A DNA stretch of 64,000 nucleotides from Alphaproteobacteria bacterium (GTDB taxonomy: Bacteria > Pseudomonadota > Alphaproteobacteria > UBA2966). The notes beneath the pieces were generated by a model, which was not told the origin of the DNA, did no database searches, and was given only the letters and a program-made list of their open reading frames with translations. The position numbers and the translations under genes were made by a program. The DNA lies in assembly GCA_965200265.1 (NCBI GenBank), contig OZ241357.1:1731003-1795002 (forward strand), in the 5' to 3' direction. Positions within the stretch are counted from its first letter, which is position 1. Each line of letters opens with the position of its first letter. Positions 3,492-56,833 of this stretch are shown one piece after another.

Positions 3492-3537
3492 CGGATCGGG
3501 GGCGGAGTGTACCGACCGGCGGCGGCCGCGGTCCATC

Positions 3538-3618
3538 CTGGCCGGTGGCCGGTGGCCAGTGGCCAGTTGCCGGCACCTGCCGGCACCGATCACCGGCAAC
3601 CGGCAACCGTCCACGGCG
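3538..3618. repeat. REP-like hairpin element made of 7-bp repeats (CCGGTGG/CCAGTGG ... CCACCGG/CCACTGG) around a CCGGCACCGATCACCGG centre
   Basis: Read directly in the sequence. Same family as the copies at 8664, 26314 and 19589. It lies in the divergent intergenic region between the MTase and rnd. Confidence 0.7.
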
Positions 3619-3695
3619 GGCGCGGGCGGGGGAATCCCTCTATGCTGCCGCGGCGCCGCGAGGCGTCGACCCGCAACAGGAACGGCGATCCGGTC

Positions 3696-8663: not shown

Positions 8664-8763
8664 CGCCGGTGGCCGGTTGCCGGTGGCCGGTGGCCGGTTG
8701 CCAGTGGCCGGTGGCCAGTTGCCAGTGGCCGGCACCGATCACCGGTCACCGGCCACCGGCCAC
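8664..8763. repeat. REP-like 7-mer-array hairpin element
   Basis: ...gccggtggccggttgccggtggccggtggccggttgccagtggccggtggccagttgccagtggccggcaccgatcaccggtcaccggccaccggccactg. Divergent intergenic region between ppk and the FAD monooxygenase. Confidence 0.7.
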
Positions 8764-8887: not shown

Positions 8888-9982
8888 ATGCCCCTTTCCC
8901 GTCACGCCGAAATCGCCGGCGCCGGATTCGCCGGCCTGACCGCGGCCGCGGCGCTGGCCCGGCGCGGGTGGTCGGTGCGCGTGCACGAGAAAGGCCCCGA
9001 GGTTCGCGCGTTCGGCGCCGGGATCTGGATCTGGACGAACGGCTGGCGCGTCCTCAAGGCGGTAGGCGCCTACGCGCGGGCGCGCGAGGACGGCTACGAA
9101 AGCCCCTCGATCGAGAGATACGACCACAACGGCAGGCTACTCATGCCGCCGGTCCGGTTCGCCGACCACGGCGCCCGGATGATCGCCGTCGTCCGGCAGA
9201 AGCTGATCGAGGCCCTGCTCGAGACGTGCCTCGAGGCGGGCGTCGACGTCGTCACGGATTCGGAGGTGTCGGGCGCCTCCGAGGACGGCGAACTGAAAAC
9301 CGCCGCCGGCGGGACGTTTCCCGCGGACCTCGTGATCGGCGCCGACGGCGTCAACTCCGCCGTCCGCGATTCGCTGAAGCTGACCCGGCGCCGCAACCGC
9401 CTCGCCTACGGCGGCTCCCGGCTGCTCATCCCGCGCACCGGGGAAGAGATGGCGGACGCGACGGACCGGGTCCTGACCTACGTCAACGGGGAAAGAAGGC
9501 TGCTGTACACGCCCTGCGGGCGGACGCTGACCTATCTCTGCTTCACCGTCCGCCCCGACGACGCGGAGGGCCGCGCCGTTCCGGTCAGAAAGAAGGCGTG
9601 GATCGAGTCGTTCCCGATGCTGGAACACGTCCTGGAGCGCGTGGGGACCGACGGCCGCTGGGACCGCTACGAGGTGATACGGCTCAAGCGCTGGACGCGC
9701 GGGCGGGTCGCCATCGTCGGCGACGCGGCTCACGCCATGGCGCCCTCGCTCGGGCAGGGCGGCGGGTGCGCGATGATGAACGCCCTGTCCCTGGCCGCCG
9801 CCGCCGGAGACGCGGCCGACGTTCCCGGCGCCCTCGCGGCGTGGGAGGAGCGGGAGCGGCCGCTGACCGAACGGGCGCAGCACGTCTCCTCGATGTTTTC
9901 GGGCCAGCGGACGGACTGGCGGCGGCGCGGCATATTCGAAACGGCCCGTCACCGGCCGACGGGCGCCGAGGGCATCGACTGA
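8888..9982 (+). CDS. FAD-dependent aromatic-ring monooxygenase (class A flavoprotein hydroxylase, salicylate/3-hydroxybenzoate hydroxylase-like)
   Basis: HAEIAGAGFAGLTAAAALARRGWSVRVHE (dinucleotide-binding GxGxxG), DLVIGADGVNSAVR, and the GDAAHAMAPSLGQGGGCAMMNA motif. Paralogue of 16442..17644. Confidence 0.85.
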   Translation: MPLSRHAEIAGAGFAGLTAAAALARRGWSVRVHEKGPEVRAFGAGIWIWTNGWRVLKAVGAYARAREDGYESPSIERYDHNGRLLMPPVRFADHGARMIAVVRQKLIEALLETCLEAGVDVVTDSEVSGASEDGELKTAAGGTFPADLVIGADGVNSAVRDSLKLTRRRNRLAYGGSRLLIPRTGEEMADATDRVLTYVNGERRLLYTPCGRTLTYLCFTVRPDDAEGRAVPVRKKAWIESFPMLEHVLERVGTDGRWDRYEVIRLKRWTRGRVAIVGDAAHAMAPSLGQGGGCAMMNALSLAAAAGDAADVPGALAAWEERERPLTERAQHVSSMFSGQRTDWRRRGIFETARHRPTGAEGID

Positions 9983-10022
9983 GCGCCCGTCCCGGAATAC
10001 GCCGTCCCGGCGGGGAACGCGC

Positions 10023-11472
10023 TCACTCGGCGGCGCGGGCGAAGCCTTTCCCGGCGCCGCGCTTCGTCTTCGCCTTCCCGGCCGTCGCCTTCCTGACCAT
10101 CCATTCCGGCTTGCGCGTGGCCTCGGTGCGGACGAACTCCTGCGTCGCCGTGCGCGGATCGGACCAGATTCTCTGCGGCTTTTCCCAGCGGTGGATGCGA
10201 GGCTGCGGCAGCGGAGTCGTGGTATCCACGATCTCGCCGTCCTTCATGACGACGTCGAGACGCTCCTTGTCCTGAAGGACCGTGATGTCGGCCAACGGAT
10301 CGCCGTCGACCACCAGCACGTCGGCGTACTTCCCCTCCTCCAGGGTGCCGATCCTGTCCTCCATGCCGAGCGCGAACGCGGCGTTCCTGGTGCCGGTCTG
10401 GATGGCCTCCATGGCGCTCATGCCGAGCACGTCCTGCATGATCTCGAGTTCGCGGGCGTGCCACTCGCCGTAGGGCACGCTGCTCTGGCCCGAGTCGGAC
10501 CCGGCCATCATCGTCACGCCGGCCCGGTGGGCGCGGGACAGGTTCCTGTGGGCGGCGTCCAGCTCCCGCTTGAGGCCCTCCAGGATCGGCGCGGGACACC
10601 CGAGATCGGGACCCCACTCGACGACGTTGGCGAGCAGGACCAGCGTCGGGTTGATGGGGGTTCCGGTCTCCAGGAAGGCGTCGACGTCCTCCTCCTCGAT
10701 GTACGAGGCGTGAATGATCCAGTCGAACCCCGCCTCGACGGCATCGCGGGCCGCCCGCCGGCCGCGCGCGTGGATGGTGCAGCGCTTGCCGAGAAGGTGG
10801 GTGATCTCCGACACGGCCTTGAGATCGTCGAGCGTCAGGCTGCCGCCCATCCCGCCTTCGCTGCGCAGCACGTCGCCGTCGCCCGAGACCTTGATGACGT
10901 CGACGCTGTCCCGGACCTGCCGGCGCACCTCCTTCACCAGTTCGTCGCGGGTGTTGCACATCACCGAGAACGCGGAAACGGGATGCTCGACCCACGTCGG
11001 GAACACGCTGCCGATGCCGTTGTAGGTCGTGAGGTACTGGGACGCGACCTTCATGCGGGGACCCTCGATCATGCCCGCGTTCACCGCGTCGCGCAGGGCC
11101 GTGGCCACCCGCCAGGTGCCGCCGGGGTCGACCAGGCTGGTGACTCCGGCGCGCAGCACCTTGCGGATGTTGAGCGCGCCGCGCAGGGCCCTGTACTCGC
11201 CCGAGGCGTAGAGGTTGAGCTCCTCGGCCGACGTGACGTCGCCATACGACGTGTGGACGTGCACGTCGATCATGCCCGGCATGACGGTCTTTCCCGTCGC
11301 GTCGATCGTCCGGCAGGCGTTTCCGCACACCTTGGCGGCGTGCGCCTTCACGGCCTCCTCCCTGCCGATCCTGGCGATGCGGCCGTCCTCGATGAACAGG
11401 GCCGTCTTCTTCTTCGGCTTGGAACCGGTCGCATCGAGGACAGATCCGCCGGTGATGAGATAGCGCGTCATG
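10023..11472 (-). CDS. Amidohydrolase-family metal-dependent hydrolase (imidazolonepropionase / prolidase-like fold)
   Basis: MTRYLITGGSVLDATG...MPGMIDVHVH (metal-binding HxH), ...IHASY..., GSDSGQSSVPYGEWHARELE. The start ATG at 11472 was chosen over the track's 11702. The C-terminus is Lys/Arg-rich. Confidence 0.75.
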
Positions 11473-11643
11473 TCACGGGTCCTTCCGTCAATTGCGGCGC
11501 CGGCGGGCGCAACCCGGCGGCGCGGCGTGTTGAACGAACCGGAGGACGGATAGTATACAATCGGAACCGCCGGACGAAACGCCGGCGCGGACGCGGGCCG
11601 GACTCCCCGCGCCGCATTGTTCGAGGGGAAACGGGAGGGCGCG

Positions 11644-12057
11644 ATGCCGGGCGACGGGAAGGTGACGATCGAACTGATGGAAGAGATCAACGCGGCGTTC
11701 AACAGCCGCGATGCGGACCGCGTCGCGTCCTATTTCGCGGAAGACGGCGTCTTCGCCACCGCCCGCGGACCCGACCCCTGGGGCCACCGCGTACAGGGCC
11801 GCGACAACATCCGCGACTTCGTGGCCAGGCGGTTCGAGGTGGTGCCCGACATGAAATGGGAGCACGACTACAAGTACGTGACCGAAAATCGGGCGGTCAC
11901 CGTATGGACCGTCACCGGCAAGAGCGCCGGGGGAGAGACGTTCAACTACCGGGGCTGCGACCTGTACGACTTCAAGGACGGCAAGATCACCTACAAGGAC
12001 ACGTTCTGGAAGATCGTCGACCCCGACGACCTGGGCGGGCTGCCGGCTTCGGAGTAG
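11644..12057 (+). CDS. SnoaL-like / NTF2-fold protein (ketosteroid-isomerase-like)
   Basis: [38 protein letters not shown]... is the typical SnoaL_2 pattern. RBS GGGAGG. Confidence 0.6.
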
Positions 12058-12139
12058 CGGAGTCCGGGCGCCGGTCCCGGCCCCGCGGGATCATGCCTCC
12101 GCCGGCGGGGCGAGCGGGCGGCCCTCCGCGCCCCGGACG

Positions 12140-13405
12140 ATGCGCCCCGATGCTCCCCGGTCGACCGCGCCGGAAAGGCGGCCCGTGCCCGTAACGGTCC
12201 GCGCCGAGCGCTTGTCGAAGGTGTTCGGCGATTCGCCCGGCGCCGCGCTGGACATGCTCGGCGGCGGCGCGTCGAAGGACGAGATACTGCGGGAGACGGG
12301 CAACGTCGTCGCGGTCTCCGAGGCCGGCTTCGACATCGAAGAGGGCGAGATCTTCATGGTCATGGGTTTGTCGGGGTCCGGCAAATCGACGCTCGTCCGC
12401 TGTCTCAACCGCCTCATCGAACCCACCGCCGGCGCCGTGCTCATCGACGGCGAGAACATCCTCGCCGCCGACGAGGGCCGCGTGCGGGAGCTGAGGCGGA
12501 CGAAGATGTCGATGGTGTTCCAGCACTTCGCCCTGTTCCCCCACAAGTCCGTCAGGGAAAACGCGGAGTTCGGGCTCAAGATCCGGGGCGCCGCGCCCGC
12601 CGAGCGGGGCGCGGCGGCGCTGGAGACCCTGCGCCTCGTCGGCCTGGAGGACTGGGCGGAGCACTACCCCGCCAGCCTGAGCGGCGGGATGCAGCAACGG
12701 GTCGGCCTCGCGCGGGCGCTGGCCACGGACCCCGGCATCCTGCTGATGGACGAGGCGTTCAGCGCCCTGGACCCCCTCATCCGGCGGGACATGCAGGACG
12801 AACTGCTCGACCTTCAGCGCAAGGTCCGCAAGACCATCGTCTTCATCACGCACGACTTCCACGAGGCGCTGAAGCTGGGCGACCGCATCGCCATGATGCG
12901 CGACGGAAAGATCGTCCAGATCGGGCCGCCCGAGGAGATCGTCTCCCGGCCCGCCGACGACTACGTCGCCGACTTCACCCGCGACGTCGACCGGGGCCGC
13001 GTCTTCTCCTGCGCCTCGATCATGCGGCAGGTGCCGCCGCTGCGGCTCGGCGAGGACACGCTCGATGACGCCGTGACGCGGATGCGGCGGGAATCCCGCG
13101 ACGCGCTCCACGCGGTCGACGGCGACGGCAGGCCGCGGGGGCTCGCCCGCGCCGGCGCGGTCGCCAGGTCCGTCCAGGCCGGCGAAACGGAGCTCGCCGG
13201 CGCGCTGGTGGACGGGTTCCCGACGACCCCGGAGACCGCGAGGATCGCCGACCTCTACGCGATGTGCGGCGACGGCCTCCCGATCGCGGTCGTGGACTCC
13301 CGCGGCGCCTACGCGGGCGTGCTCATGCCGCTCGACGTCCTGACCAAGCTCACGCCGGACGCGCCGGACGCGCCGGACCCCGGCGCCGCGCGGCCGCGGC
13401 CATGA
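12140..13405 (+). CDS. proV: Glycine betaine/proline-type ABC transporter ATP-binding protein with tandem CBS domains (ProV/OpuAA family)
   Basis: Walker [25 protein letters not shown] signature, Walker [13 protein letters not shown]-terminal CBS region. Confidence 0.85.
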
Positions 13406-14379
13406 ACGACCCTTCCGATCTCTTCCTGCTGCCGCTGGAGGACTGGATACAGACGGCCGTGGAATGGGTGGTCGCCAACTGGCGCCCGGTCTTCCAGGCA
13501 ATCCGCTGGCCCATCTCCTACACGCTCGACGGGCTGGAGGCGGCGCTCCAGGGAATCCCCTACCTCGTGGTCGTGGCCGCGATGTTCGCCGTCGCGTGGC
13601 GCGCCGCCGGCTGGCGCACCGGCGCCTTCAGCCTCGCCGCCATGCTGTTCATCGGGTTCCTGGGCCTGTGGGACAAGGCGATGACGACGCTCGCCATCGT
13701 CTTCACGGCGGTCGTGTTCTGCGTGATCGTCGGCCTGCCGCTCGGAATCCTGGCGGGCAGAAGCGACCGGTTCTGGTCGTGGCTGAGGCCGGTCCTGGAC
13801 GTGATGCAGACCACGCCGTCCTTCGTCTACCTCGTTCCCGTGGTGATGCTGTTCGGCATCGGCACCGTTCCGGGCGTCATCGCCACGATCATATTCTCCC
13901 TGCCGCCGCTCATCCGCCTGACCAACCTGGGGCTCCGGCAGGTGCGGACCGAGGTGGTGGAGGCCGGCCTGGCGTTCGGGTCGACCCGCTGGCAGCTGCT
14001 GAAGGAGGTGCAGTTCCCCCTGGCCCTCCCCACCATCATGGCGGGGCTCAACCAGACGCTTCTGCTGGCGATGGTCATGAGCGTCATCGCCGCCATGATC
14101 GGCGCCGAAGGTCTGGGACTCACCGTGTTGCGGGGGATCGGCAGGCTCGACGTCGGCCTGGCGGCGATCGGCGGCATCAGCATCGCGCTGCTGGCCATCA
14201 TCCTCGACCGGGTGACCCAGGCGCTGGGCCAGGCGCGGCGGGACGGCCCGCCGATCGAGCGCCGGAGCTGGCTGGCGATGGTGTTCGGCTCGCGTCCGCG
14301 GCCCGGCGAAAGCCCGGCGGCGGGCGGGAGCGACTCCTTCCGGGAGCCCTCCGGGCGGTTCTCCAGGGGCGGGGGGTGA
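13402..14379 (+). CDS. proW: Glycine betaine/proline-type ABC transporter permease (ProW/OpuAB family)
   Basis: Multi-TM protein with the EAA-loop region ([39 protein letters not shown]). ATGA start/stop overlap with proV. Confidence 0.85.
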
Positions 14380-14474
14380 GCGGCTTGACTCGCGAAAGGC
14401 GACTCGCGGACAATCCCCTTTCACGATCACGCACCACGCACACACGATCGCACGTGCGAAACGGGGAGGCGGGA

Positions 14475-15503
14475 ATGAACATCAGCCTGCGCAACGTCGG
14501 CATCGTCGCCGGACTCGCATTGTTCGCCCTGGCGGCGCCGGCGGCGGAATCCGCCGCCGCCGAGAAGTCGGCCAAGCCGGCCCGGGCCACCTGGGACACG
14601 TTCTGGTTCGGCGAACGGATTCTGAAGATCGGCCTGGAGCGCCTCGGCTATACCGTCGCGGAGCCGAAGACGCTCAACAACCCGGCGCGCTATCCCGCCG
14701 TCGCGCAAGGCGACGTCGATTACGAGACGGACGCCGTGATCCCGAACGCCAGCGCCTTCATCGAGAAGGTCAAGGCCGACGTCGAACTGGTCGGGCCGCT
14801 CATGAATCCGGGCTCCATCCAGGGTTATCTGATCGACAGGAAGACGGCGGAGGCCCACGGCATAACGAGCCTCGAGGACCTCAAGAAAGACGACGTCCGG
14901 AAGCTCTTCGACGGCGACGGCGACGGCAAGGCGGACCTGATCGGCTGCAATCCCGGCTGGAACTGCGAGAAGTTCATCAACCACCACATCGGCGCCTACG
15001 GGCTGGCCGACCACGTGAAGCACGTGCAGGGCGAGTACAACGTGCTGGTCGGAGATACGGTCGGCCGGTTGAAGCGCGGGGACTCCGTGCTCCTCTACGC
15101 CTGGTATCCGAACACCGCCACCATCCAGATGACGCCGGGCGAGGACCTGGTCTGGATCACGGTGCCCTACACCGACCTTCCGGACGGCGGCAAGGCCGAC
15201 ACGACGCAGGAGGGGCTGAAGTCCTGCGCCGCCGGCGCCGGGGCGTCGTGCAACCTCGGCTGGGCCGCGACCCAGTACTACGTCGCCGCGAACAGGAAGT
15301 GGCTGGCCGCGAACCCCCAGGCCCGGAAGCTGTTCGAGCTGGTCAAGGTCGGCCTCGAGGACCGGGTGACCCAGAACCTGGCCATGAAGAACGGCGAGGA
15401 CTCCGAAGCGGACCTGACGCGCCACGCGGAGCAGTGGATCGCCAACAACAAGGCCGCGTTCGACGGCTGGGTGGAAGAGGCCCGCAAGGCCGGCAGCTAC
15501 TAG
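14475..15503 (+). CDS. proX: Quaternary-amine (betaine-type) ABC transporter substrate-binding protein (ProX/OpuAC family)
   Basis: Signal peptide MNISLRNVGIVAGLALFALAAPAAESA, then an OpuAC-like fold (GCNPGWNCEKFINHHI, YAWYPNTA). Confidence 0.8.
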   Translation: MNISLRNVGIVAGLALFALAAPAAESAAAEKSAKPARATWDTFWFGERILKIGLERLGYTVAEPKTLNNPARYPAVAQGDVDYETDAVIPNASAFIEKVKADVELVGPLMNPGSIQGYLIDRKTAEAHGITSLEDLKKDDVRKLFDGDGDGKADLIGCNPGWNCEKFINHHIGAYGLADHVKHVQGEYNVLVGDTVGRLKRGDSVLLYAWYPNTATIQMTPGEDLVWITVPYTDLPDGGKADTTQEGLKSCAAGAGASCNLGWAATQYYVAANRKWLAANPQARKLFELVKVGLEDRVTQNLAMKNGEDSEADLTRHAEQWIANNKAAFDGWVEEARKAGSY

Positions 15504-15506
15504 CGG

Positions 15507-15540
15507 GCAGCGGGTAGCGGGCCGTTTCGCGCCCGCAACC
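15507..15540 (+). terminator. GC-rich hairpin downstream of proX (GCGGGCcgtttcGCGCCCGC)
   Basis: Inverted repeat immediately after the proX stop codon. There is no T-tract, as is common in high-GC genomes. Confidence 0.35.
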
Positions 15541-15598
15541 CCGTCCGTGGCGGCCGCCTCCCGCGCCGGGACGCCGCAGGCCGAAGGACGTTCGCTTC

Positions 15599-16411
15599 AT
15601 GCCGCTCGAGGAACGGGACATCGAATTCGAGGGGACGACCGTTCACGTCTGGGAGGGCGGAAGCGGCTTCCCGGTCCTGATGCTGCACGGATCGGGGGCC
15701 GGCGCCTCGATCTTCTCCAACTTCGAGCGTGTTCTCGAGCCTCTCGGCGAACGCTACCGGATACTGGCCGCGGACCTCGTCGGCTTCGGCCAATCGGGGC
15801 TGAAGCCGGAGATGCCGTACTTCGACGTCGAGATGTGGCTGCGTCAGGGGCTGCGCCTGGCGGAACTGCTTCCCGACGGGCCGATCGGCGTCATCGGGCA
15901 CTCGCTCTCCGGGGCGTTCGCGCTCAAGCTCGCCGCCCGAACCGGCCGGATCGCCAAGGTCATGGCCACCGGCACCATGGGGGCCAGCTTCGAGGTCCCC
16001 GAGGCGCGCAACCGCGCGTGGACCTACCCGGAAACGGACGAGGCCATCCGCGGCGTCGCCGAGCACATGGTCGTCGACAAGTCGATCGTCACCGACCGTC
16101 ACGTCGCCCACCGCAAGGCGATCCTGACCCGGCCCGGCTATCGCGAGTACTTCAGGGCGATGTTCGAGAAGGACCGGCAGCATTTCGTCGACGCCTCGGC
16201 CGTGACCCCGGACGAACTCTCCCGGATCGGCTGCGACGTCCTGTTCGTGCACGGCCGGCAGGACGCGTCGTTCCCGCCGGACAAGACGACGCTGGTCCTC
16301 GCCCGGGCGATCCCGACTTCCGACGTCGTCCTGCTGTCCCGGTGCGGGCACAACGTCGCCTACGAACAGCCCGCGAAATTCCTGCGCGCCTGCGAGATGC
16401 TCTTTGGATAG
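15599..16411 (+). CDS. Alpha/beta-fold hydrolase (meta-cleavage-product hydrolase / MhpC-BphD-like)
   Basis: Nucleophile elbow GHSLSG, LMLHGSGAGAS oxyanion region, C-terminal catalytic His (CGHNVAYEQP). Confidence 0.8.
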   Translation: MPLEERDIEFEGTTVHVWEGGSGFPVLMLHGSGAGASIFSNFERVLEPLGERYRILAADLVGFGQSGLKPEMPYFDVEMWLRQGLRLAELLPDGPIGVIGHSLSGAFALKLAARTGRIAKVMATGTMGASFEVPEARNRAWTYPETDEAIRGVAEHMVVDKSIVTDRHVAHRKAILTRPGYREYFRAMFEKDRQHFVDASAVTPDELSRIGCDVLFVHGRQDASFPPDKTTLVLARAIPTSDVVLLSRCGHNVAYEQPAKFLRACEMLFG

Positions 16412-16441
16412 GCCGTTTCCCGAGGCGCCGGGCGCCGGCGC

Positions 16442-17644
16442 ATGACCCGGCACGCGGAGATCGCCGGCGCCGGCTTCTCCGGCCTCGCGATGGCCGCCGC
16501 GCTGGCCCGGCGCGGGTGGTCGGTGCGCGTCCACGAGCGGTCTGCCGAGGTGCGGGCGTTCGGCGCCGGGATCTGGACGTGGGAGAACGGCGTCCGCGCG
16601 CTCGCCAGCATCGAGGCCGCCGACGACGCCTTCGCCGACTGCATCCCGCCGCCCCGATACCTCGAACGGGACGCCGGGCAGCGCATCATCCGGTCGCTGC
16701 CCTTCCCGCCGCCACGCAGCGCCAGCGGCGTCCGCATGTTCTGCATCACGCGGCAGCAGCTCCTCATGGCCATTCACGGCGCGGCGATGCGGGCGGGGGT
16801 GGAGGTCGCCGTCAATTCCGAGGTCGTTTCCGCGCGGCCCGAAGGCGCACTCGAAACCGCCGACGGAAGGACCTTGCGGGCGGACCTCGTCGTCGGCGCG
16901 GACGGGGTCAATTCCCGGGTCCGCGATTCCCTCGGCCTGCTGCGAAGCCGCCGCCGGCACGCGGACGGGGGGATCCGGGTGCTGGTGGCGCACGAGGGAG
17001 GCTACGGCGACACCGAGGAAGGGAGCCTGCTGCGCTCGTGGTGGAGCGGCCGGCGGCGGTTGCTGTACACGCCGTGCACGAGCGACGTCTTCTACATGTG
17101 CTTCACGGGACGGGCGCGGGACGGCCAAGCGTCGCGGGTTCCCCTGCACAAGGAGTCGTGGATCCGCCATTTCCCGTTCATGGAATCGATGATCGACCGC
17201 GTGGGCGAGGAGCAGCGCTACGACGTCTTCGAAACGGTGAAGTCCAAGCGCTGGCGCGCCGGCCGGGCGGCGATCATCGGCGACGCCGGCCACGCCATGG
17301 TTCCGGGGCTCGGCCAGGGGTGCGGCATGGCCATCTGCAACGCCCTGTCGCTGGCCGGCCATCTGGCCGATCACCGGGACGTCGAGCGCGCGCTCGACGA
17401 ATGGGAAACGCGCTGGCGCCCGATCACGGAGCACGCCCAGCTCTGGTCCCGGATCAGCTGGCCGCTGACGCAGATCCCGGTCGGCGTCGCCCGCTGGGCC
17501 TTCCGGACTCCGGCGGTTCACGACTGGGTGGCGGCCCAGCGCAGCAAGCCTTCCCGCGTCATGCCCCACGGCAGCGAGAACGACCCGCGCTGGCTCCCGC
17601 GGGACGCGGCCGCGCCGATCGCAACGCCGGGCGGGAAGCCATGA
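16442..17644 (+). CDS. FAD-dependent aromatic-ring monooxygenase, paralogue of 8888..9982
   Basis: MTRHAEIAGAGFSGLAMAAALARRGWSVRVHE..., DLVVGADGVNSRVR, GDAGHAMVPGLGQGCGMAICNA. The N-terminal 30 aa are nearly identical to the paralogue. Confidence 0.85.
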   Translation: MTRHAEIAGAGFSGLAMAAALARRGWSVRVHERSAEVRAFGAGIWTWENGVRALASIEAADDAFADCIPPPRYLERDAGQRIIRSLPFPPPRSASGVRMFCITRQQLLMAIHGAAMRAGVEVAVNSEVVSARPEGALETADGRTLRADLVVGADGVNSRVRDSLGLLRSRRRHADGGIRVLVAHEGGYGDTEEGSLLRSWWSGRRRLLYTPCTSDVFYMCFTGRARDGQASRVPLHKESWIRHFPFMESMIDRVGEEQRYDVFETVKSKRWRAGRAAIIGDAGHAMVPGLGQGCGMAICNALSLAGHLADHRDVERALDEWETRWRPITEHAQLWSRISWPLTQIPVGVARWAFRTPAVHDWVAAQRSKPSRVMPHGSENDPRWLPRDAAAPIATPGGKP

Positions 17645-19191
17645 AGAAAACGCCGCTGTTCGACATCCATGTGGCGTCGGCGAGACGCATGGTCAACCTC
17701 AAGGGCTTCGCCCGCCCCGTCGAGTACGCGGGCCACGCCGAGGAGCACCGGGCCATCCGGGAACGGGTCAGCCTGTGCGACGTGTCCCACATGGGCGAGA
17801 TCGAAATCAGCGGTCCGGACGCGCCGGCGCTGGTGGACAGGCTGATCACGAACGACGCCGCCCGCCTCGACGCGGGCCAGGCCCTCTACACCGTCATGTG
17901 CGATGAACGCGGCCACGTCATCGACGATCTGGTCTGCCTCCGCCTGGCGGAAGACCGGTTCCTCTGGGTCGTCAACGTCACCAGGACCGACGAGGACCAT
18001 CGCTGGGTCCTGAAGCACGCCCAGGGCCTCGATACGCACGTCCGCGACCGGTCGGCGGAACTCGCCCTCCTCGCCCTCCAGGGGCCGTATTCGAGCGAGG
18101 TCCTGCAAAAGGTCGTCGCGGCCGACCTTTCGGGAATGGCCTACTACCGGCTGGCGGAAACCACCGTCACGACCGACGAGACGGAGGCCCCCTGCATCGT
18201 CAGCCGCACCGGATACACCGGCGAACGGGGATACGAGATCTGCGTTTCCCGGGACTTCGCCCCGTCCGTGTGGCGGGCGCTGATGCGCGCCGGGCGTCCC
18301 CTGGGCATCGCGCCGCACGGGGTCGCCGCCCGCGAGAGCGCGCGCACCGAAGCCGGCTACCTGCTCAACGGCAACGACATCGACGACCGGACCTACCCCC
18401 ACGAGGTCGGTCTCGGCTGGGTGGTGAAGCCGCACAAGGACTTCATCGGGCGCGACGCGCTGGCCGCCGTCGCCGAAGGGGGAGCGCCGCGGAAGCTGGT
18501 GGGGCTGGAGATGGCGGGACGGGTCACGATCCGCCACGGATACCCCGTCTTCAGGGACGGCGAGCGGATCGGGCGGGTCACGAGCGGCCCGCTGTCTCCC
18601 GACCTGGTGGGCGGCGCCGCGAGCCTGGGGCTGGGATTGGTCGCCAGCGCCCACGCCGGGGACGGCGGCGTCCTCCAGATCGGCGTGCGCGGCGCGCGCC
18701 ACGATGCGCGAATCGTCCCCTACCCCTTCCGGGAACGGCGGGTGCGCGACGACGCCAGGGTGGACACCCTGTCTCCCTGCGGGCTGCGCTACGGCGAGGA
18801 TCATTTGTGGGTCGGGGCGGAGTCCGACGGCCGGGCCACGATCGGGCTCACCGACTTCGGACAGCGGTATCTGGGGGAAGCGCTGTCGGCGGTGCTGCCG
18901 GTGCCGGGCGACCGCATCGTGCGGGGATCGCCGTTCGGCTGGCTCGACGCCTACCGCAGGCCCTTCGACCTGATCGCGCCGGTGTCGGGGACGGTCGTGG
19001 CGGTGAACGCGGCCGCGGTCGAACGACCGGGCGACGTCAACCGCTATCCCTACGCGCGCGACGGCCTGATCCGGATCGAACCCGACGATGCCGGGGAGAT
19101 CCCGGCGCTCGCCGGGTTCGCCGCCTACACCGAGACCACGCGCCGGCTCGAGCGCTACGACTCCTGGTCCCGGGACCTCAGGCTGACCTGA
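17641..19191 (+). CDS. gcvT: Aminomethyltransferase (GcvT-type, folate-dependent) fused to a C-terminal GcvH-like domain that lacks the lipoyl-lysine
   Basis: The N-terminal ~360 aa align closely with GcvT (TPLFDIHVASARRMVNLKGF...CDVSHMGEIEISG..., GYTGERGYEI). The C-terminal ~150 aa align with the genome's own GcvH (LRYGEDHLWV..GLTDFGQRYLGE..), but ESVKAAS is replaced by LDAYRRP, so there is no lipoylatable Lys. Start overlaps the preceding stop (ATGA). Confidence 0.8.
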   Translation: MKKTPLFDIHVASARRMVNLKGFARPVEYAGHAEEHRAIRERVSLCDVSHMGEIEISGPDAPALVDRLITNDAARLDAGQALYTVMCDERGHVIDDLVCLRLAEDRFLWVVNVTRTDEDHRWVLKHAQGLDTHVRDRSAELALLALQGPYSSEVLQKVVAADLSGMAYYRLAETTVTTDETEAPCIVSRTGYTGERGYEICVSRDFAPSVWRALMRAGRPLGIAPHGVAARESARTEAGYLLNGNDIDDRTYPHEVGLGWVVKPHKDFIGRDALAAVAEGGAPRKLVGLEMAGRVTIRHGYPVFRDGERIGRVTSGPLSPDLVGGAASLGLGLVASAHAGDGGVLQIGVRGARHDARIVPYPFRERRVRDDARVDTLSPCGLRYGEDHLWVGAESDGRATIGLTDFGQRYLGEALSAVLPVPGDRIVRGSPFGWLDAYRRPFDLIAPVSGTVVAVNAAAVERPGDVNRYPYARDGLIRIEPDDAGEIPALAGFAAYTETTRRLERYDSWSRDLRLT

Positions 19192-19248
19192 ACGTCCATC
19201 TGTTCTCCCCTCGGGGCGCCACTCGGACCTTCGCGAGACACGGCCGAG

Positions 19249-19760
19249 GGTGTGCAAGGTGTGCAATTCGACGCACCGGGTCCGCCCTCCATACGGTGTG
19301 CAAGGTGTGCCATTCCGGGCGCGATCCGGACCTCCGCGGAATGCGCCCGACGGTGTGCAAGCTGTGCAATTCGACGCGCCGGGTCCGCCCTCCATACGGT
19401 GTGCAAGCTGTGCCATTCCGGGTACGGCCCGGACCTCCGCAGGATGCGCCCCACGGTGTGCAAGGTGTGCAAGTCGGCGCGCCGGGCACACCCCCCATAC
19501 GGTGTGCAATGTGTGCCATTCCGGGCGCGGCCCGGACTTCCGCGAGATGCGCCCGACGGTGTGCAAGGTGTGCAAGTCGGCGCACCGTGCCGCGACTGGC
19601 GACTGGCGACTGGCGACTGGCCACCGGCGACCGACCTTAGTGTGCAACGTGTGCCATTCCGGGCGCGGCCCAGACTTCCGCGGAATGCGCCCCCACGGTG
19701 TGCAAGGTGTGCAAGTCGGCGCGCCGCGTCCCGCTCGCCGTTCCCGGCGCCGGGCGGGTT
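19249..19760. repeat. Composite tandem repeat array (about 104-bp dimer unit, roughly 4.5 copies). Each half-unit begins GGTGTGCAAGGTGTGC(A/C)A. Unit B carries the hairpin CATTCCG...CGGAATG.
   Basis: Read directly. Half-units start near 19249, 19295, 19352, 19399, 19455, 19501, 19558, 19639 and 19698. It sits in the convergent intergenic region between the gcvT fusion (+) and the SDR gene (-). Confidence 0.8.
19589..19636. repeat. GCGACTG heptamer microsatellite / REP-like insertion inside the tandem-repeat array
   Basis: gccgcgactggcgactggcgactggcgactggccaccggcgaccgacc shows the same 7-mer logic as the other REP-like elements. Confidence 0.6.
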
Positions 19761-19781
19761 TCACGGACGCCGGGGCCGCCG

Positions 19782-20561
19782 TCAGAACAGCGCCGGATTC
19801 AGCCCGCCGTCCAGCAGAATGCTCTGGGCCGTGATGTAGCCCGCCCTGTCGCCGCACAGGAACGCGCAGGCTTCGCCGAATTCCTCCGGCGCGCCGAACC
19901 GGCCGACCGGGATGCGCGCGATCCGGCGCTCCGCGGCCGCTTCCGGACTCACCCCCTCGCGCCTGGCGACGGCCTCGGTCGTGGCGCGAAGGCGATCGGT
20001 AAGGATCTCTCCGGGAAGCAGGTTGTTGATCGTCACGTTGTGCCGGGCGACTTCACGGGCGATGGTGCCGACCGCGCCCGTGAGGCCCGCCCTCGCGCCG
20101 TTCGACAGCACCAGGATGTCGACGGGCGCCTTCACGGAACCGGACGTGACGTTGACGATGCGGCCCCATCGGCGCGCGATCATGCCGTCGACCGTCGCCT
20201 GGATCAGGGCGATGGCCGTCAGCATGTTGGCGTCCAGCGCCGCGATCCAGTCCTCGCGCGTGAAATCCCGAAAGTTGCCGGGCGGCGGACCTCCGGCGTT
20301 GTTGATCAGGATGTCCGGCTCGGGACACGCGCCCAGCGCCGCCTCGCGCCCTTCCTCGGTCGTGACGTCGCCGACGACGGCCGTGACCTGCGCCGCCGTC
20401 GCGGCCCGGATCTCCGCGGCGGTCGCCTCGACGGTTTCCGGGGTGCGGCCGGTGACGGTCACGTCGACGCCTTCCCGCGCCAGCGAGAACGCGCAGGCCC
20501 TGCCGAGGCCGCGACTCGAGGCGCACACGAGCGCCTTCCTTCCCGCGATACCGAGATCCAT
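19782..20561 (-). CDS. SDR-family oxidoreductase (3-oxoacyl-ACP reductase-like)
   Basis: N-terminal GRKALVCASSRGLGRA (TGxxxGxG), the NNAG motif, and the classical SDR active-site region. Confidence 0.85.
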   Translation of the reverse strand: MDLGIAGRKALVCASSRGLGRACAFSLAREGVDVTVTGRTPETVEATAAEIRAATAAQVTAVVGDVTTEEGREAALGACPEPDILINNAGGPPPGNFRDFTREDWIAALDANMLTAIALIQATVDGMIARRWGRIVNVTSGSVKAPVDILVLSNGARAGLTGAVGTIAREVARHNVTINNLLPGEILTDRLRATTEAVARREGVSPEAAAERRIARIPVGRFGAPEEFGEACAFLCGDRAGYITAQSILLDGGLNPALF

Positions 20562-26313: not shown

Positions 26314-26393
26314 GCCGGTGGCCGGTGATCAGTGACCGGTGGCCAGTTGCCAGTTGCCAGCACCGATCACCGGCCACTGGCCACTGGCCACTG
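26314..26393. repeat. REP-like 7-mer-array hairpin element
   Basis: gccggtggccggtgatcagtgaccggtggccagttgccagttgccagcaccgatcaccggccactggccactggccactg, located between the gcvP 3' end and the ndk 5' end. Confidence 0.7.
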
Positions 26394-26411: not shown

Positions 26412-29309
<2,898 letters not shown>

Positions 29310-29338
29310 CTTCCTTCTCCCTCGCAGGCGAACGCGCG

Positions 29339-29728
29339 TCACGGCCCGGATCGGTCCGGGTCCTTCACGAACGCCGCGTACTGGTCCGCGTCCATCAGCC
29401 CGTCGAGCTCGCCGGGGTCGCTGATCCTGATCTTGACGAACCAGCCGCTTCCCTCGGCGTCCCGGTTGACCTGCGCCGGGTCGTCGCCGAGGGCCTCGTT
29501 GACCTCGACGATCTCGCCGCTCACGGGGGCGTAGACCTCGCTGGCGGCCTTGACCGACTCCACGACCGCCGCCTCGGCGCCCTTCGAGACCGACTCGCCG
29601 ATTCCGGGAAGGTCGACGTAGACCACGTCGCCGAGTTGCTCCTGCGCGTAATCGCTGACCCCGACGGTCGCCACCTCGCCCTCGAGGCGGATCCATTCGT
29701 GGTCCCTGGTGTATCTGAGATCGCTCAT
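29339..29728 (-). CDS. gcvH: Glycine cleavage system H protein (lipoyl carrier)
   Basis: [41 protein letters not shown]...[21 protein letters not shown], with the lipoyl-Lys present. Confidence 0.95.
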
Positions 29729-29884: not shown

Positions 29885-30140
29885 ATGGCGACCTCGCGAC
29901 AGGGCTCTCCGCCGATGCAGCGGAGCCTGCCCCCTCTGTCGCTGGACCTGAGAGATTGACCGGCGCGCATCGGGCCACGCGGACCCTGCCGGTTTTCCCC
30001 TTCGGTGGAAGCCGCGCCGGCATCCGCCGCGACTCCGCTTTCCAGAGCGCCGTCCCCCCGCGGTCCTTTCGCCTGAGAGTTTCCGGGGCGGTTGCTCCTT
30101 CGGCGCCGGCTCCCGGAGGAACCGGCCTCTCCCGCGGGGA
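29885..30140 (-). ncRNA. Glycine riboswitch (tandem aptamers) in the gcvH-gcvP leader
   Basis: Reverse complement reads ...CGGGAGAGgccggttcctccgggagccggcgCCGAAGGAGCAAccgccccggaaaCTCTCAGGCGAAAGGACcg (aptamer 1), then CTCTGGAAAGcgg...CCACCGAAGGGGAAAAccgg...CTCTCAGGtccagcGACAGAGG (aptamer 2). This matches the conserved glycine-riboswitch cores. Confidence 0.8.
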
Positions 30141-30228
30141 TCGTCCGGCTGTAGCCGCGATGATAGGCGGCGCCCAGCCCCTGTCAACCGCCGGACGCGG
30201 CGGCCGGGGCCACCCTCGTCACCGGCCG

Positions 30229-31421
30229 CCTTCAACGTCACCTCGGCGCTGGGCCGAGGGATATGACGATCACACGCTTGTTGCCCGGCGATACGACGCC
30301 CTTCAACGTCACCTCGGCACTTGGCCGAGGGATACCGGGCTCAACTGCCACACCCCCATCCACATCCCCTCCCTTCAACGTCACCTCGGCGCTCGGCCGA
30401 GGGATACAACGCACGGGCGCGCCCGGCGATATCGGACGCCATCCTTCAACGTCACCTCGGCGCTTGGCCGAGGGATATTCGGTAGCGGCGCGTGCCGTCG
30501 CCCAGGACTTCGGCCCTTCAACGTCACCTCGGCGTTTGGCCGAGGGATACGCAGGTCGATGCCCGGATCGATGCGGCGATTCCGGCCCTTCAACGTCACC
30601 TCGGCGCTTGGCCGAGGGATACGCGGGCGGCGGGGTGGCCGCCGAGATCGTCGTCGACCTCCTTCAACGTCACCTCGGCGCTTGGCCGAGGGATACGACT
30701 CGACGCTAGCGGACGTCGCCTGCGCCGACGGCCTTCAACGTCACCTCGGCGCTGGGCCGAGGGATACCGTTCGAGGCCGCCCGGTCCGGGTCCGGGTACA
30801 GCGCCCTTCAACGTCACCTCGGCGCTGGGCCGAGGGATACCGCCCACCGGCCCGAAGAACGACGCCGCCAGCGCGACCCTTCAACGTCACCTCGGCGCTT
30901 GGCCGAGGGATACTCACCGCGCAGTCGCCGATCGAGGCGGCGGAGATCAGCCTTCAACGTCACCTCGGCGCTTGGCCGAGGGATACGCAGCGCCGGGTGC
31001 GTGATCTCGACCCCCGACAGGACCTTCAACGTCACCTCGGCGCTGGGCCGAGGGATACCCGGGCCTTGTCGTTCAGCGCCGCGTGCCACTCGAACCTTCA
31101 ACGTCACCTCGGCGCTGGGCCGAGGGATACCGCGCAGGCGCTGGCGATCGGCGACGTCGTGCCCCACCCTTCAACGTCACCTCGGCGCTGGGCCGAGGGA
31201 TACGCCCTCGTTGATCGCCTCGCGCTTGTCGGCGCGGGCGTCCTTCAACGTCACCTCGGCGCTGGGCCGAGGGATACTGTCGTCCGTGTGACGCGGTGGC
31301 GGCGCAGGCCGGACCTTCAACGTCACCTCGGCGCTGGGCCGAGGGATACCCCGTCGACACCGGCCTCCTCCAGCGCCTTGAGCGCCCTTCAACGTCACCT
31401 CGGCGCTGGGCCGAGGGATAC
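30229..31421 (-). CRISPR. CRISPR array of 17 repeats and 16 spacers. 36-bp repeat GTATCCCTCGGCCCAGCGCCGAGGTGACGTTGAAGG (transcribed strand), spacers 35-39 bp.
   Basis: Plus-strand repeat CCTTCAACGTCACCTCGGCGCTGGGCCGAGGGATAC, period 71-73 bp. Internal 7-bp stem CCTCGGC/GCCGAGG with single-base loop polymorphism (ctGggcc / ctTggcc / ctCggcc / ttTggcc). The 5'...TTGAAGG 3' end and the adjacent minus-strand cas genes fix the transcription direction. Confidence 0.95.
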
Positions 31422-31556
31422 GGCGGCCTCGCGGGCCGTTGATTCGAGACGGATATTTCCCCTGATTTCGAGAGCCTCCCCGTTCCTCGCGTTTCACGCT
31501 TTCCGCGGGATCGGCCGCGAGCGCGCAAGCCGTTGATCCGACGCCCGGTTTCGCGA
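31422..31556 (-). promoter_or_regulatory. CRISPR leader
   Basis: 135-bp non-coding, comparatively AT-richer segment between the csb2 stop and the first repeat (...gattcgagacggatatttcccctgatttcgagag...). Confidence 0.6.
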
Positions 31557-33008
31557 TCACGAACCTTCCCGAGTCCGCCAGCCGCCGCCGGCCCGCGCCC
31601 AGTCCTCGATTCTCGTCGGCAGGAACAGTCCGAGCCCGTATCCGATGCCCGCGCCGAGCAGGACCGGCCCCGCCACCGGCTCCTTCCATCGAATGGACAT
31701 GTGCTGACACGGATAGCCCGCCAGGTGACGGGGCCGGTCGTACCGGGACGGCATGTCGCTCCCGCGCAACCGGCCGGCGGGCTCCATGGTCGCGCTTTCC
31801 AGCATCGCCTCGGGGATACCCGCGCGCCGCAACAGCCGCCGCACCGAGCGTTCCGGCCGCGGCCGGCCGCGCCGGTGGTCGCGCCCCCACAGCACGACCG
31901 GCGTCGCCGTCGTCCATGCCTGCGCCTCTCCGTAATATCGGGCGAGTATCCGGTCGGCGCCCGCGATCGGCGTCAGCATCCCGGCTGGCTCCGTCTGCCC
32001 TTCGGGGATCAGTTCCGCTCCGATCAAGCGGTGCAGCACGCCGAGCCAGTCGTCCTCCTCGACGCTCTCCGGCGCCGTCAGCATGACCCTCCTGATGCGG
32101 CCGTCGGCGTGTTCGTGCCCGACGTTGGGCAGGGGATGGACCCGTATTCTCCGTTCGCCCCCGTGTCCCATCAATTCGGAGATCGTCCTCTCCGCCAGAC
32201 CCGCGCGCCGCGCCGCGCCGCCGATCGCGTGACGCGCCATGGCCGCGACCGCCATCGCCCGCGTTCCCTCGAACGAGAGCGGCCGCTCGTCCATGTCCTT
32301 CAACGCGAACGCCTCGCACCGGATCGGCGGCAGGTCCTGTTCCGACATGTAGCCCTCCTGCCGATGGTCCGGCTCCGGCACCCCGGCCACCCCCCCGTCC
32401 GGCCCGATACGGCCGCGGAATCGGCAGTATCGCTTTTCGAGAACGTCGAACGCCCCCGGGTAGGGGACGTTCAGCCGACGTTGCCCCGTCGGCGACTGCG
32501 TGTACGCGACCCCCGGCGGACGCGCCGGCCGGTCCGCGAGTTCGAGGCGCGCGACGGCGGAGTCGATTCCGTGCCCGACCGCCGAAACCGACTCGACGAT
32601 CTCCTTCAACGCCCCGAGATGGCGTTCCGTCTCCGTGTCGGCGTCCCACTGGTAGGTCACCGCGCCATCGAGGCTGCGCGGACGCCGGACCCGGGGCGTC
32701 GTCGCTTCTCGGGCTTTCTTGAAAGCGTCCGCGCGCTTGCCTTTGGCGAAGAGATCAAGCATCCGGTCGCCGTCATTGTTCGGAACGAACGACCTCACCG
32801 GCGCTCGGTCCTCGGCTTCCGGCGCATGGATCGTCGGCGGGTCGAGCCTTTCGAGATGCCGCATGGCCGCTTCCAATGCCCGGTCGCCGCGCCGATGCAC
32901 GGCGTACCCCGCGATCATCGCCTGATAGAGCCGGAGCGGCGAAGGCGGCCACTCGGCGCCGTGATAGGTACGGTCGAGCCAGTCGACGGTCACGCGAAGC
33001 GTCGGCAT
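31557..33008 (-). CDS. csb2: Type I-G/I-U Cas5-Cas6 fusion (Csb2 / GSU0054 family)
   Basis: 484 aa starting MPTLRVTVDWLDRTYHGAEWPPSPLRLYQAMIAGY..., the Csb2 N-terminal signature (EWPPSP). RBS GGAGAAGAAAGGG. The first 203 codons of track ORF 31557..33617 are out-of-frame junk. Confidence 0.65.
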   Translation of the reverse strand: MPTLRVTVDWLDRTYHGAEWPPSPLRLYQAMIAGYAVHRRGDRALEAAMRHLERLDPPTIHAPEAEDRAPVRSFVPNNDGDRMLDLFAKGKRADAFKKAREATTPRVRRPRSLDGAVTYQWDADTETERHLGALKEIVESVSAVGHGIDSAVARLELADRPARPPGVAYTQSPTGQRRLNVPYPGAFDVLEKRYCRFRGRIGPDGGVAGVPEPDHRQEGYMSEQDLPPIRCEAFALKDMDERPLSFEGTRAMAVAAMARHAIGGAARRAGLAERTISELMGHGGERRIRVHPLPNVGHEHADGRIRRVMLTAPESVEEDDWLGVLHRLIGAELIPEGQTEPAGMLTPIAGADRILARYYGEAQAWTTATPVVLWGRDHRRGRPRPERSVRRLLRRAGIPEAMLESATMEPAGRLRGSDMPSRYDRPRHLAGYPCQHMSIRWKEPVAGPVLLGAGIGYGLGLFLPTRIEDWARAGGGWRTREGS

Positions 33009-33013
33009 CGGCC

Positions 33014-34152
33014 CTACCCTTTCTTCTCCTCGAACATCGCCATCGCCTTGGCAATCTTGAACTCGTGATCCTTCGGTTCGCCGCCGAGTGCAACGCCGGC
33101 CGTTTCGGACCACTTCTTCGCAATCTCGTCGACCTCTTCGAGAACGGCGCTCTCGTCGACCTCGATCGACCGCCGCTCGCCGCCCCTGGTGACCGCCCGC
33201 CATTCGGCCGGCGCGGCGGGCACGAGGGAACATCCCGACCGGAGATCGTAGTCCCCGCCGCCGACCAGCAGCCCGCCCAACGCCAAGCCGAGCAGGTAGT
33301 TCGGCAGAACGTCGCTCCCGTCGTCGGTCCGGTATTTCCTGATGGCGTTCAGCAGAATCGAGGCCGAGTGGACGATCTCGCCATGCGCCAGGATTCCTCC
33401 GCGTGCGCCGTCGTCGTCCGTCGCCGGCGTCGGAGCTAAGCCGACCCCCGCGGCGCCACCTTTCTTCCTGCTCCAGATCTTTTCGTCTATGCCGAGTTCC
33501 TCCCGCTTGAAAGCTCCCGAGTATTGGGCCGACCGCGTGAAGACCGAGACGTCGTGGGCGCGGATCTCCGATCGAACGACCCGGGGAATCTTCACCTGCG
33601 TGTCGCGGGAGTCCCACGCTCCGTAGACCAACGACGTGGGAGCGGCTTTGGCGAGAGGCACCGGTTTTCCCCTCTCAAAGTCCCGCATCCACTCGCGAAT
33701 GTCGTCGGCGAGGTCCGTGGCGCGTATCGAGGCATCGACGATGCGATGGGGCAGTTTCGTCAGTTCGACTCGGTGATCGCCTGCCTGTACCGCGTGTTGC
33801 GGAACGACGCCGGCGAGCCCGTCCGTGAACGCCGCTTCCATCCGGTTGGCCTGCGACTGGTCCGGGGTCGTCGGGGCCGGGCGGCGGCGGGTGAACGCCG
33901 CTTCCATACGGTTGGCCTGCGACTGGACCGAGTCGAGATCGCAGACGAGCACGCCATCCTTCGTTTCGTTGACGGTGTAGGGCGTATCGTGACGGTGTAT
34001 CCCCGTCTTCTCCGGAGCAGGATAGGTCGGTGGGAAGATCGGCACGCCGGGGCCGTCTATCGATTCCAGCTTCCGCTTGAACGTCAAGGCGACGACCTCC
34101 CGGTCGGCCACAAGACTCTCGATCAGCTTCCCGTTCCCGGTCGCTTTCGACA
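33014..34152 (-). CDS. cas7: Type I-G/I-U Cas7 (Csb1 / GSU0053 family)
   Basis: 379 aa from MSKATGNGKLIESLVADREVVALTFKRKLESIDGPGVPIFPPTYP..., RBS AAGGAGAA. Contains an in-frame 66-bp tandem duplication (QSQANRMEAAFT x2). Confidence 0.65.
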
Positions 34153-34193
34153 TGGAAAAGTTCTCCTTGTTCGGTGAATCCGCGAAAACGACC

Positions 34194-34973: not shown

Positions 34974-34980
34974 CGCGCCC

Positions 34981-56709: not shown

Positions 56710-56833
56710 GGCGGCACGATAGACCGGCCCGGCCCCGGCCACAAGCGCAAGGAGAGGGCGCCGCGCCCGGTCAAGATGCAGGGCAATCGCATCCGGAAAT
56801 TCCGGGTGGCCCTGCGATAGCCGGCGGCCGCGG

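Follow-up and report, generated by a model that had tools for sequence, protein, structure and literature searches.

A strain-variable array of paired TGTGCAA half-sites behind a gcvT-gcvH fusion, probably one locus of a narrowly distributed family of alphaproteobacterial minisatellites

The element analysed here—an array of tandem direct repeats carrying a bipartite TGTGCAA box, in the gap between a gcvT-gcvH fusion (gcvTH) and a short-chain dehydrogenase (SDR) gene—lies in a 64,000-nt stretch of contig OZ241357.1 from an Alphaproteobacteria bacterium (UBA2966), hereafter the window, within which all coordinates are counted. Several described systems resemble it in part. BIME-2 of E. coli, NIME of Neisseria (dRS3 plus RS) and RIME of Rhizobium are mosaic intergenic repeats, and they share with the present family a short constant motif alternating with a few variable modules, tandem amplification, an intergenic location and restriction to a species or lineage. 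However, the constant motifs of BIME and NIME (REP and dRS3) are palindromes found in alternating or inverted arrangement at hundreds of sites, whereas here the box is a direct repeat, the units point one way, few loci are known and there are no solo copies in 220 kb. The plasmid iteron and centromere arrays—sopC of F (12 × 43 bp), incA of P1 and parC of R1—are alike in having tandem direct units of ~40–50 bp, each with a short conserved motif (predicted to be bound by protein in our case), and in copy number (9–21). They sit on a replicon beside cognate par or rep genes and keep a uniform length, whereas the arrays of this family lie in ordinary chromosomal gaps that lack such genes and vary widely in length. 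The mycobacterial interspersed repetitive unit–variable-number tandem repeats (MIRU-VNTRs), reportedly described by Supply et al. (see also PMC3294723), are a further counterpart. They also consist of head-to-tail units of 40–100 bp, are intergenic, occupy several loci in a high-GC host, vary in copy number between strains and have no demonstrated function. There is no sequence similarity to our family, MIRUs are not known to have an invariant bipartite box with a variable linker, and their units often carry short open reading frames (ORFs) that overlap neighbouring genes, while our family instead alternates two unit types with a 103-bp period. BrickBuilt of Porphyromonas gingivalis, a minisatellite housed in a MITE (miniature inverted-repeat transposable element), is similarly species-restricted, always intergenic and dispersed as tandem arrays with characteristic end modules and strain variation (PMC4596501). 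It differs in its 23-nt units without spacers, its leader and tail subunits, which end in small inverted repeats, its 19 copies per genome and its promoter activity (PMC4596501); our family has no inverted ends, and no promoter-like sites were found in it. In behaviour, the family is closest to MIRU-type VNTRs and, in architecture, to BIME-2, NIME, RIME and BrickBuilt, with a unit design like that of F sopC or P1 incA, but by sequence or defining features it belongs to none of the MIRU, BIME/NIME/RIME, BrickBuilt or iteron groups.

Our principal finding is that the array is probably one locus of a lineage-restricted, non-coding interspersed minisatellite or "mosaic" repeat family endowed with a putative protein-recognition box that would act at the DNA level. 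As in interspersed VNTRs or minisatellites, non-coding units of 10–100 bp stand in tandem, recur at several loci and differ in copy number between strains. An initial annotation of the window had described a composite tandem repeat, and the repeat is real: motif GTGTGCAANNTGTGCMA occurs in 9 copies, all on the + strand within 19250–19714 and none elsewhere in the 64-kb window (box starts at 19250, 19296, 19353, 19399, 19456, 19502, 19559, 19640 and 19698), against 0 boxes (GTGTGCAA-NN-TGTGCMA) in 100 dinucleotide-preserving shuffles, and Tandem Repeats Finder (TRF) scores 19224–19587 at 532, with 3.5 copies of a 103-bp period that match at 87%. The start-to-start spacings of 46, 57, 46, 57, 46, 57, 81 and 58 bp reveal alternating A and B units of 46 and 57 bp that together set the 103-bp higher-order period. 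The dimer that had been proposed is therefore confirmed, although its period is 103 rather than ~104 bp; past the stretch covered by TRF and a GCGACTG microsatellite lie one more B unit and a terminal box. Of the unit lengths given earlier, 46 bp is right for A, while 58 bp is true of B4 alone. The microsatellite itself, 5.7 copies at 19592–19631, was correctly seen to interrupt one copy, the fourth A unit, in which the spacer tail is swapped for the heptamer run. The extent previously given (19249–19760) needed revision at both ends: the array begins earlier, at ~19207, with a degenerate B-type spacer that no box precedes, and from 19727 the sequence is ordinary intergenic DNA. It was rightly noted that both flanking genes end at the array, gcvTH with its stop at 19191 (+), 57 bp ahead of the first box, and the SDR gene at 19782 (−), which leaves a convergent intergenic gap of 590 bp. 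The features are as follows.

17641–19191, + strand: gcvT-gcvH fusion, 516 aa, left flank (Pfam GCV_T, GCV_T_C, GCV_H; 98% identical orthologue P0001)
19207–19248, + strand: left terminal module, degenerate B-type spacer without a preceding box (aligns over 39 nt with the left end of its L034 counterpart)
19249–19294, + strand: unit A1, 46 bp, box GGTGTGCAAGGTGTGCAA and 28-nt A spacer
19295–19351, + strand: unit B1, 57 bp, box GGTGTGCAAGGTGTGCCA and 39-nt B spacer with a TCCGG..CCGGA hairpin
19352–19397, + strand: unit A2, 46 bp, linker GC
19398–19454, + strand: unit B2, 57 bp, linker GC
19455–19500, + strand: unit A3, 46 bp
19501–19557, + strand: unit B3, 57 bp, linker TG
19558–19638, + strand: unit A4/H, 81 bp, box and A-spacer head, with a heptamer module in place of the C-rich tail
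19592–19631, + strand: GCGACTG heptamer microsatellite, 5.7 copies (TRF; fewer copies in L026)
19639–19696, + strand: unit B4, 58 bp, box start AGTGTGCAA, linker CG
19697–19726, + strand: right terminal module, last box and A-spacer head (GTCGGCGCGCCG)
19727–19781, no strand: ordinary intergenic remainder with a GC palindrome, CCCGGCGCCGGG, at 19743–19754 (by comparison with L027)
19782–20561, − strand: SDR gene, 259 aa, right flank, convergent to gcvTH (Pfam adh_short, adh_short_C2)

The constant part of each unit is a bipartite box, ACGG-TGTGCAA-NN-TGTGCMA-TTC, in which two 7-bp direct half-sites stand 9 bp apart, and the remainder is a more variable GC-rich spacer of type A (28 nt), type B (39 nt), type C or a heptamer-microsatellite type. 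Across 88 units from seven arrays, only 2 of 1232 cells are variant in the half-sites (positions 2–9, 12–16 and 18 of GGTGTGCAA-NN-TGTGCMA), while minor alleles take up 8.2% of B-spacer and 11.8% of A-spacer cells, which makes the half-sites ~50-fold less variable than the spacers. Position 17 of the box is dimorphic (A in 47 units, C in 41), with C in 31/32 B units and A in 19/23 A units. The 2-bp linker is variant in 41/176 cells (23%), nearly all of them in B units (GG, GC, TG, CC, CG, GT), and the AC ahead of the box and the TTC behind it are nearly fixed. Even the most decayed spacers (L026_7144 and L033_10572) are still paired with perfect boxes. Outside the arrays, TGTGCAA is at chance level, with 1 occurrence in the window vs ~3 expected from base composition. 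The suggestion that the paired half-sites are a protein-binding module fits this conservation, and we infer such binding from it. Every array starts with a box-less B-type spacer and ends with a box and the first 11–14 nt of an A spacer, and this common end structure argues that the loci share one origin and did not arise independently. The variant GGACTGCC is confined to the second locus described below, between lpxC and bamD, which points to local homogenisation.

The comparison of the contigs encoding relatives that we found by a GcvTH search shows how unstable the array is at the gcvTH locus. Three strains with 98% identical gcvTH genes have gcvTH-SDR gaps of 590 bp (9 boxes, the window), 866 bp (14 boxes, L026, gcvTH DNA 98.3% identical) and 1198 bp (21 boxes, L033, 98.1%). 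L026 has a shorter heptamer run and the unit order A B A A B A B A B A B' H B A', with one A-A adjacency, and L033 has no heptamer run but internal block duplications. When aligned, the arrays of these strains are 83–89% identical, with gaps of 21–262 bp, vs 98% for the flanking gcvTH; the earlier proposal of a variation hot-spot is in this respect well founded. Sister species have the same gene order but short gaps: 39 bp in L027 (gcvTH DNA 92.5% identical), 8 bp in L030/L031 (82%), 52 bp in L028 (80%) and 39 bp in L029 (GcvTH protein 88% identical). The ~55 bp at 19727–19781 of the window resembles the entire 39-bp gap of the array-free L027. Long gaps in the 98% identical strains and gaps of 8–52 bp in the sisters together indicate that the array is specific to one species-level lineage, in which its length varies between strains.

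The family also occurs elsewhere, at at least three loci, but is rare, narrowly distributed and interspersed. A scan for two boxes 20–50 bp apart, run as an exact pattern over 596 Gb of species-representative genomes, JGI metagenomes and IMG/VR, returned no family member; the matches were 9-mer TGTGCAA microsatellites with no relation to it, coding repeats of the collagen-like kind and, in other phyla, a few box-plus-spacer arrays that are likewise unrelated. We therefore searched at the protein level with a spurious 270-aa ORF called across the array of L026, which led to 12 further "proteins", all without Pfam domains. P0122, P0125, P0127 and P0128 are, from their DNA or termini, further alleles of the gcvTH locus. 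A second locus lies between lpxC and bamD, both co-directional and on the strand opposite to the array, in L032, L035 and L036, with gaps of 807, 883 and 774 bp and 11, 12 and 10 boxes; lpxC is 98.7% identical across these three samples and the arrays 91–92%. Copy number thus varies between strains at both loci. A third locus, between a divergent VG64-like gene and erpA (L034), has nine 46-bp C units between heptamer-bearing units, and P0132 corresponds to A/B units at the erpA locus of another strain. The heptamer module of the A4/H type is also present in L026, L035 and L036. A phmmer search with the spurious ORF of the window against 1.84 billion representative proteins gave 13 matches only, including short arrays of 2–4 boxes mixed with heptamer repeats (P0137–P0139, P0141). 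A diverged family in another lineage, P0140, also among these matches, has the box TGTGCGG and a 46-bp unit (GGTGTGCGGAYTGTGCGGATCGCCACGCCGGGTTCGACCCCCGAAG, rebuilt from three reading frames) that matches the A consensus at 31/46 positions, with both half-sites changed from CAA to CGG; six alleles are known, which their common flanking peptides place, apparently, at a single locus. No match to the family was obtained by blastn against plasmids and phages, and a literature search returned no paper with the box or heptamer strings.

Public gene calls turn these arrays into "proteins" of 50–480 aa (P0121–P0133, P0137–P0146) with periodic peptides such as VCKVC, GVQGV or CARCA, and these database entries are annotation artefacts. 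The array is not a repeat protein, since 103 bp cannot be divided by 3 and Pfam domains are absent from the spurious ORFs that cross such arrays (P0121, for example). TGTGCAA-NN-TGTGCAA pairs with a spacer also form tandem units with 30–80-bp periods in unrelated bacteria (Fimbriimonadales, Planctomycetota and metagenome contigs), at L002 4100–4215, L003 1–430, L006 3100–3300 (= L014), L011 9150–9500 and L019. A second repeat family occupies three intergenic gaps of the window (3539–3609, 8665–8763 and 26314–26393) as palindromic heptamer elements forming long imperfect hairpins, with a left arm (GGCCGGT/GGCCAGT)n, a conserved centre GCACCGATCACCGG and a right arm (CACCGGC/CACTGGC)n. The heptamer arrays at 3543–3567, 8681–8726 and 26336–26360 are related to the 19592–19631 run, and one-armed versions stand inside the box arrays (window 19592–19631; L034 4900–4950, 5350–5395 and 5445–5490); heptamer copy number differs between strains.

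How might such an array arise and persist? Whole units or blocks of units would be gained and lost by replication slippage or by unequal recombination between near-identical boxes and units, and this gain and loss would explain why arrays differ in length and unit order among close strains and diverge faster than their flanks. The box may be recognised, as DNA, by a protein that reads its specific sequence, which would account for its being intact even in the most decayed units. The putative box protein would either serve the spread of the repeat itself or be a DNA-binding protein of the host, with an architectural or titrating role, or of a mobile element. The box, two direct 7-bp half-sites presumably recognised by that protein, is the sole feature that goes beyond a neutral minisatellite. 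Most likely, the array is a tolerated, largely selfish or neutral element, and its visible effect is length polymorphism and, at the window locus, a long additional segment downstream of where gcvTH stops. Several points weigh against this interpretation. First, no gene is common to the three loci. Second, copies within an array are not independent, which means that the cell counts given above overstate the number of events, and box conservation could partly reflect the way in which units are copied and not selection. Third, the linker of A units is GG in 22/23, and it is therefore not simply unconstrained. Fourth, assembly from short reads, to which the window and L026 may owe their scaffolds, can collapse repeats or put them in the wrong order, so that copy numbers may be off; contig names of the form ctg..x_l, by naming only, suggest that L032–L034 are long-read assemblies. 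Finally, the scan of the array for sigma-70-like promoters, which like that for intrinsic terminators gave 0 sites, covers alphaproteobacterial or alternative-sigma promoters poorly, and the nhmmer search with A, B and C unit profiles, which gave no match at E < 0.3 outside the arrays and thus no solo units, covered only ~220 kb of lineage sequence.

The initial annotation had argued from the converging genes that the array is not a promoter, which is valid for the window locus only: the sister arrays lie antisense to a co-directional pair (lpxC/bamD) or between divergent genes (erpA). A sigma-54 promoter (TGGCAC-N5-TTGCW) was considered and rejected: the minus-strand B box TGGCACA-NN-TTGCACA is spaced 10, not 12 bp, and 0 matches were found with 1 mismatch allowed.

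That the arrays are maintained as functional sites, with 10–21 box pairs per locus bound by a host or mobile-element DNA-binding protein, is possible, if unlikely. They could be centromere-like, as sopC of F, could mediate iteron-type titration or handcuffing, as P1 incA, or could organise the nucleoid. Consistent with this, the half-sites are invariant while linker and spacers vary, both half-sites have shifted together from CAA to CGG in the P0140 family, and the 46 + 57 = 103 bp of a dimer correspond by calculation to ~ten helical turns. In addition, the unrelated Fimbriimonadales locus L002 has two TGTGCAA-NN-TGTGCAA pairs inside a primase-helicase gene, a frequent place for iterons. However, at none of the three loci is a par, rep or other DNA-binding gene adjacent, the sister species lack the array at the gcvTH locus, the very unstable copy number and unit order argue against a tuned function, and there is neither a DnaA box nor an AT-rich unwinding element in this 70% GC sequence. 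The two L002 copies sit within the 3′ part of the 794-aa primase-helicase gene (Zn-ribbon, Toprim, AAA_25) and are suggestive of replicon iterons there, but they are not homologous to the box family, and the likeness may be due to convergence or chance. Among specific candidates, a DnaA box was rejected, as TGTGCAA, compared with TGTGNAW (reverse-complemented), agrees with the relaxed consensus at only 7/9 positions and there is no TTWTNCACA in the window. An iteron origin or par centromere is disfavoured too, the neighbours being gcvTH, SDR, hda, lpxC, bamD and erpA, with no cognate rep/par gene adjacent. The TraR tra-box half-site ATGTGCAG has TGTGCA in common with our box, yet the tra box is palindromic, and this likeness is at best a weak lead towards LuxR/NarL-type helix-turn-helix proteins. 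A related and more tentative idea, for which we see a rather small chance, is that the arrays are chromosomal high-density binding platforms for a putative lineage-specific protein, a "satellite with a protein box" by analogy with the CENP-B boxes of alpha-satellite and with the sopC/incA iteron arrays. Such a platform might be a titration sink or decoy for a mobile element's replication initiator or partition protein, or might organise the nucleoid, and the box and its putative protein would co-evolve, as TGTGCAA in one lineage and TGTGCGG in another.

It is improbable that the array is a non-autonomous mobile element in which an iteron pair and a GC hairpin form the substrate of an HUH-type or other transposase or recombinase acting in trans. 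Such an enzyme would disperse arrays and amplify units in tandem, and the box would be kept by selection for mobilisation. Three unrelated loci do hold arrays in the same phase, with a box-less B spacer at the start and a box with an A-spacer head at the end, linker and spacer variants are common to several loci, arrays are absent from sister species, and BrickBuilt offers the analogy of a minisatellite inside a MITE (PMC4596501). Yet terminal inverted repeats are lacking, the array ends show no conserved leader or tail beyond unit-like sequence, no solo units exist in ~220 kb, the window regions scanned contain no transposase or Y1/HUH gene, and the empty sites of L027 and L028 have diverged too far for insertion boundaries to be placed or target-site duplications defined. 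Other repeat classes were likewise set aside. For a MITE, the best alignments of the left end with the reverse-complemented right end are generic GC-rich stretches of 8–21 nt. For REP/REPIN, the box is a direct repeat, not a palindrome, all units have one orientation, and the ~220 kb covered has no scattered copies outside the arrays. The family was not seen as a CRISPR either, its constant box being 18 bp and its spacers forming 2–4 homologous families that are ~88–92% alike, while the cas genes of the window (31557–37605) have their own array (30229–31425) with an unrelated 36-nt repeat.

It is very doubtful that the element works at the RNA level, transcribed (here as gcvTH 3′ UTR) as a multi-copy small RNA, a CsrA-like sponge or an anti-Shine-Dalgarno (CCUCC) decoy. 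The + strand of B spacers allows two hairpins, TCCGGGY-GCG-GCCCGGA (95% of cells paired) and CGC-RRRAU-GCG; in the former, changes on one side mostly remain G-U compatible, and GGA and CCUCC motifs are frequent. We compared three candidate B-unit helices—TCCGGGY/GCCCGGA with CGC/GCG, a longer alternative and the CATTCCG/CGGAATG hairpin put forward earlier—which pair in 86–95% of cells. Compensatory pairs numbered 0 in the two local hairpins and the CATTCCG/CGGAATG helix and 2 in the third alternative, not above shuffles, although the copies are so alike that this is a weak negative. The CATTCCG/CGGAATG complement is perfect in B1 and B4 only, with CAGGATG, CGAGATG or CGGGATG at its position in B2, B3 and most family members. 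Searches of Rfam, at E <= 10 for the region and over the whole window, gave nothing but noise for the array, and its fold energy is no better than that of shuffles on either strand (z −0.59 on +, +1.24 on −). Further evidence against a role as RNA is that promoter and terminator matches are absent, several units have GAGA or GAAA where the loop should read GGA, conservation lies in the box and not in the hairpins, and at the lpxC locus the array strand is antisense to both neighbours. The proposed RNA-structure modules are thus supported neither by these results nor by the orientation of the arrays, which differs among loci. A CsrA sponge (CGC-GGGAU-GCG loop) in particular was rejected, GGA not being conserved. 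Lastly, a collapsed or expanded assembly is extremely improbable, for although 103-bp repeats of 85–90% identity are hard for short reads and the window has the lowest copy number of the three strains, the same family, loci and end structure recur in independent assemblies from at least 5 samples, three of them on contigs whose names look long-read-like, and the point variants between units follow a consistent pattern.

The setting of the locus is that of an ordinary chromosome of a 70% GC bacterium, whose closest named GcvTH relatives are from uncultured Alphaproteobacteria. Beyond the SDR gene lie hda (226 aa) and genes for an AI-2E transporter, a CDP-alcohol phosphatidyltransferase, DUF2066, purM and ndk; hda is an ordinary chromosomal gene, not a plasmid-type initiator, and is equally placed in array-free relatives. 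Further on are a gcvP-gcvH pair behind a tandem glycine riboswitch and, farther still, a CRISPR-Cas locus and cytochrome oxidase genes. The riboswitch (29934–30144, −), with two Rfam RF00504 aptamers of 69.7 and 39.1 bits, is upstream of gcvH (29339–29728) and gcvP (26412–29342), and a second GcvH domain is fused to GcvT at 17641–19191. On the other side of gcvTH, the species of the window has ~9 kb extra (8888–17644), encoding an ABC/OpuAC-type transporter, an alpha/beta hydrolase and an FAD oxidoreductase, compared with the sister species L027/L030 (1–5000), where ppk directly precedes gcvTH.

The window holds other features unconnected with the array. An ORF of at least 1575 aa at 3–4727 (−), which extends past the window edge, combines domains of the Eco57I-type methylase, N6_Mtase and TaqI_C specificity kinds and is predicted to be a type IIG-like restriction-modification fusion. 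At the other end, 56373–57559 and 57924–63998 (−) hold blocks of 21-bp coding repeats and an ORF, at least 2024 aa long, that is built in part of 360-bp repeats and matches Calx-beta weakly; this is probably a giant repetitive surface protein. The CRISPR array at 30229–31425 consists of ~16 repeats of ~36 nt (CCTTCAACGTCACCTCGGCGCTGGGCCGAGGGATAC) with a period of ~72 and adjoins genes for a Cas_GSU0054-family protein (31557–33008, −) and a Cas3-like helicase (34981–37605, −); we take this system, unrelated to the box array, to be type I-U/I-G-like.

As a family, these interspersed minisatellites of bacteria are new and very narrow in distribution, and they could help to tell apart strains within an uncultured alphaproteobacterial lineage. 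They also carry a caution for annotators, arrays of this kind being called as hypothetical proteins of 200–480 aa. A spurious ORF of the repeat proved to be an effective protein-database query for reaching its sister arrays. If a specific binder exists, the arrays would offer many natural sites at once on which to learn how the chromosome of a bacterium copes with, or exploits, satellites densely bound by protein.

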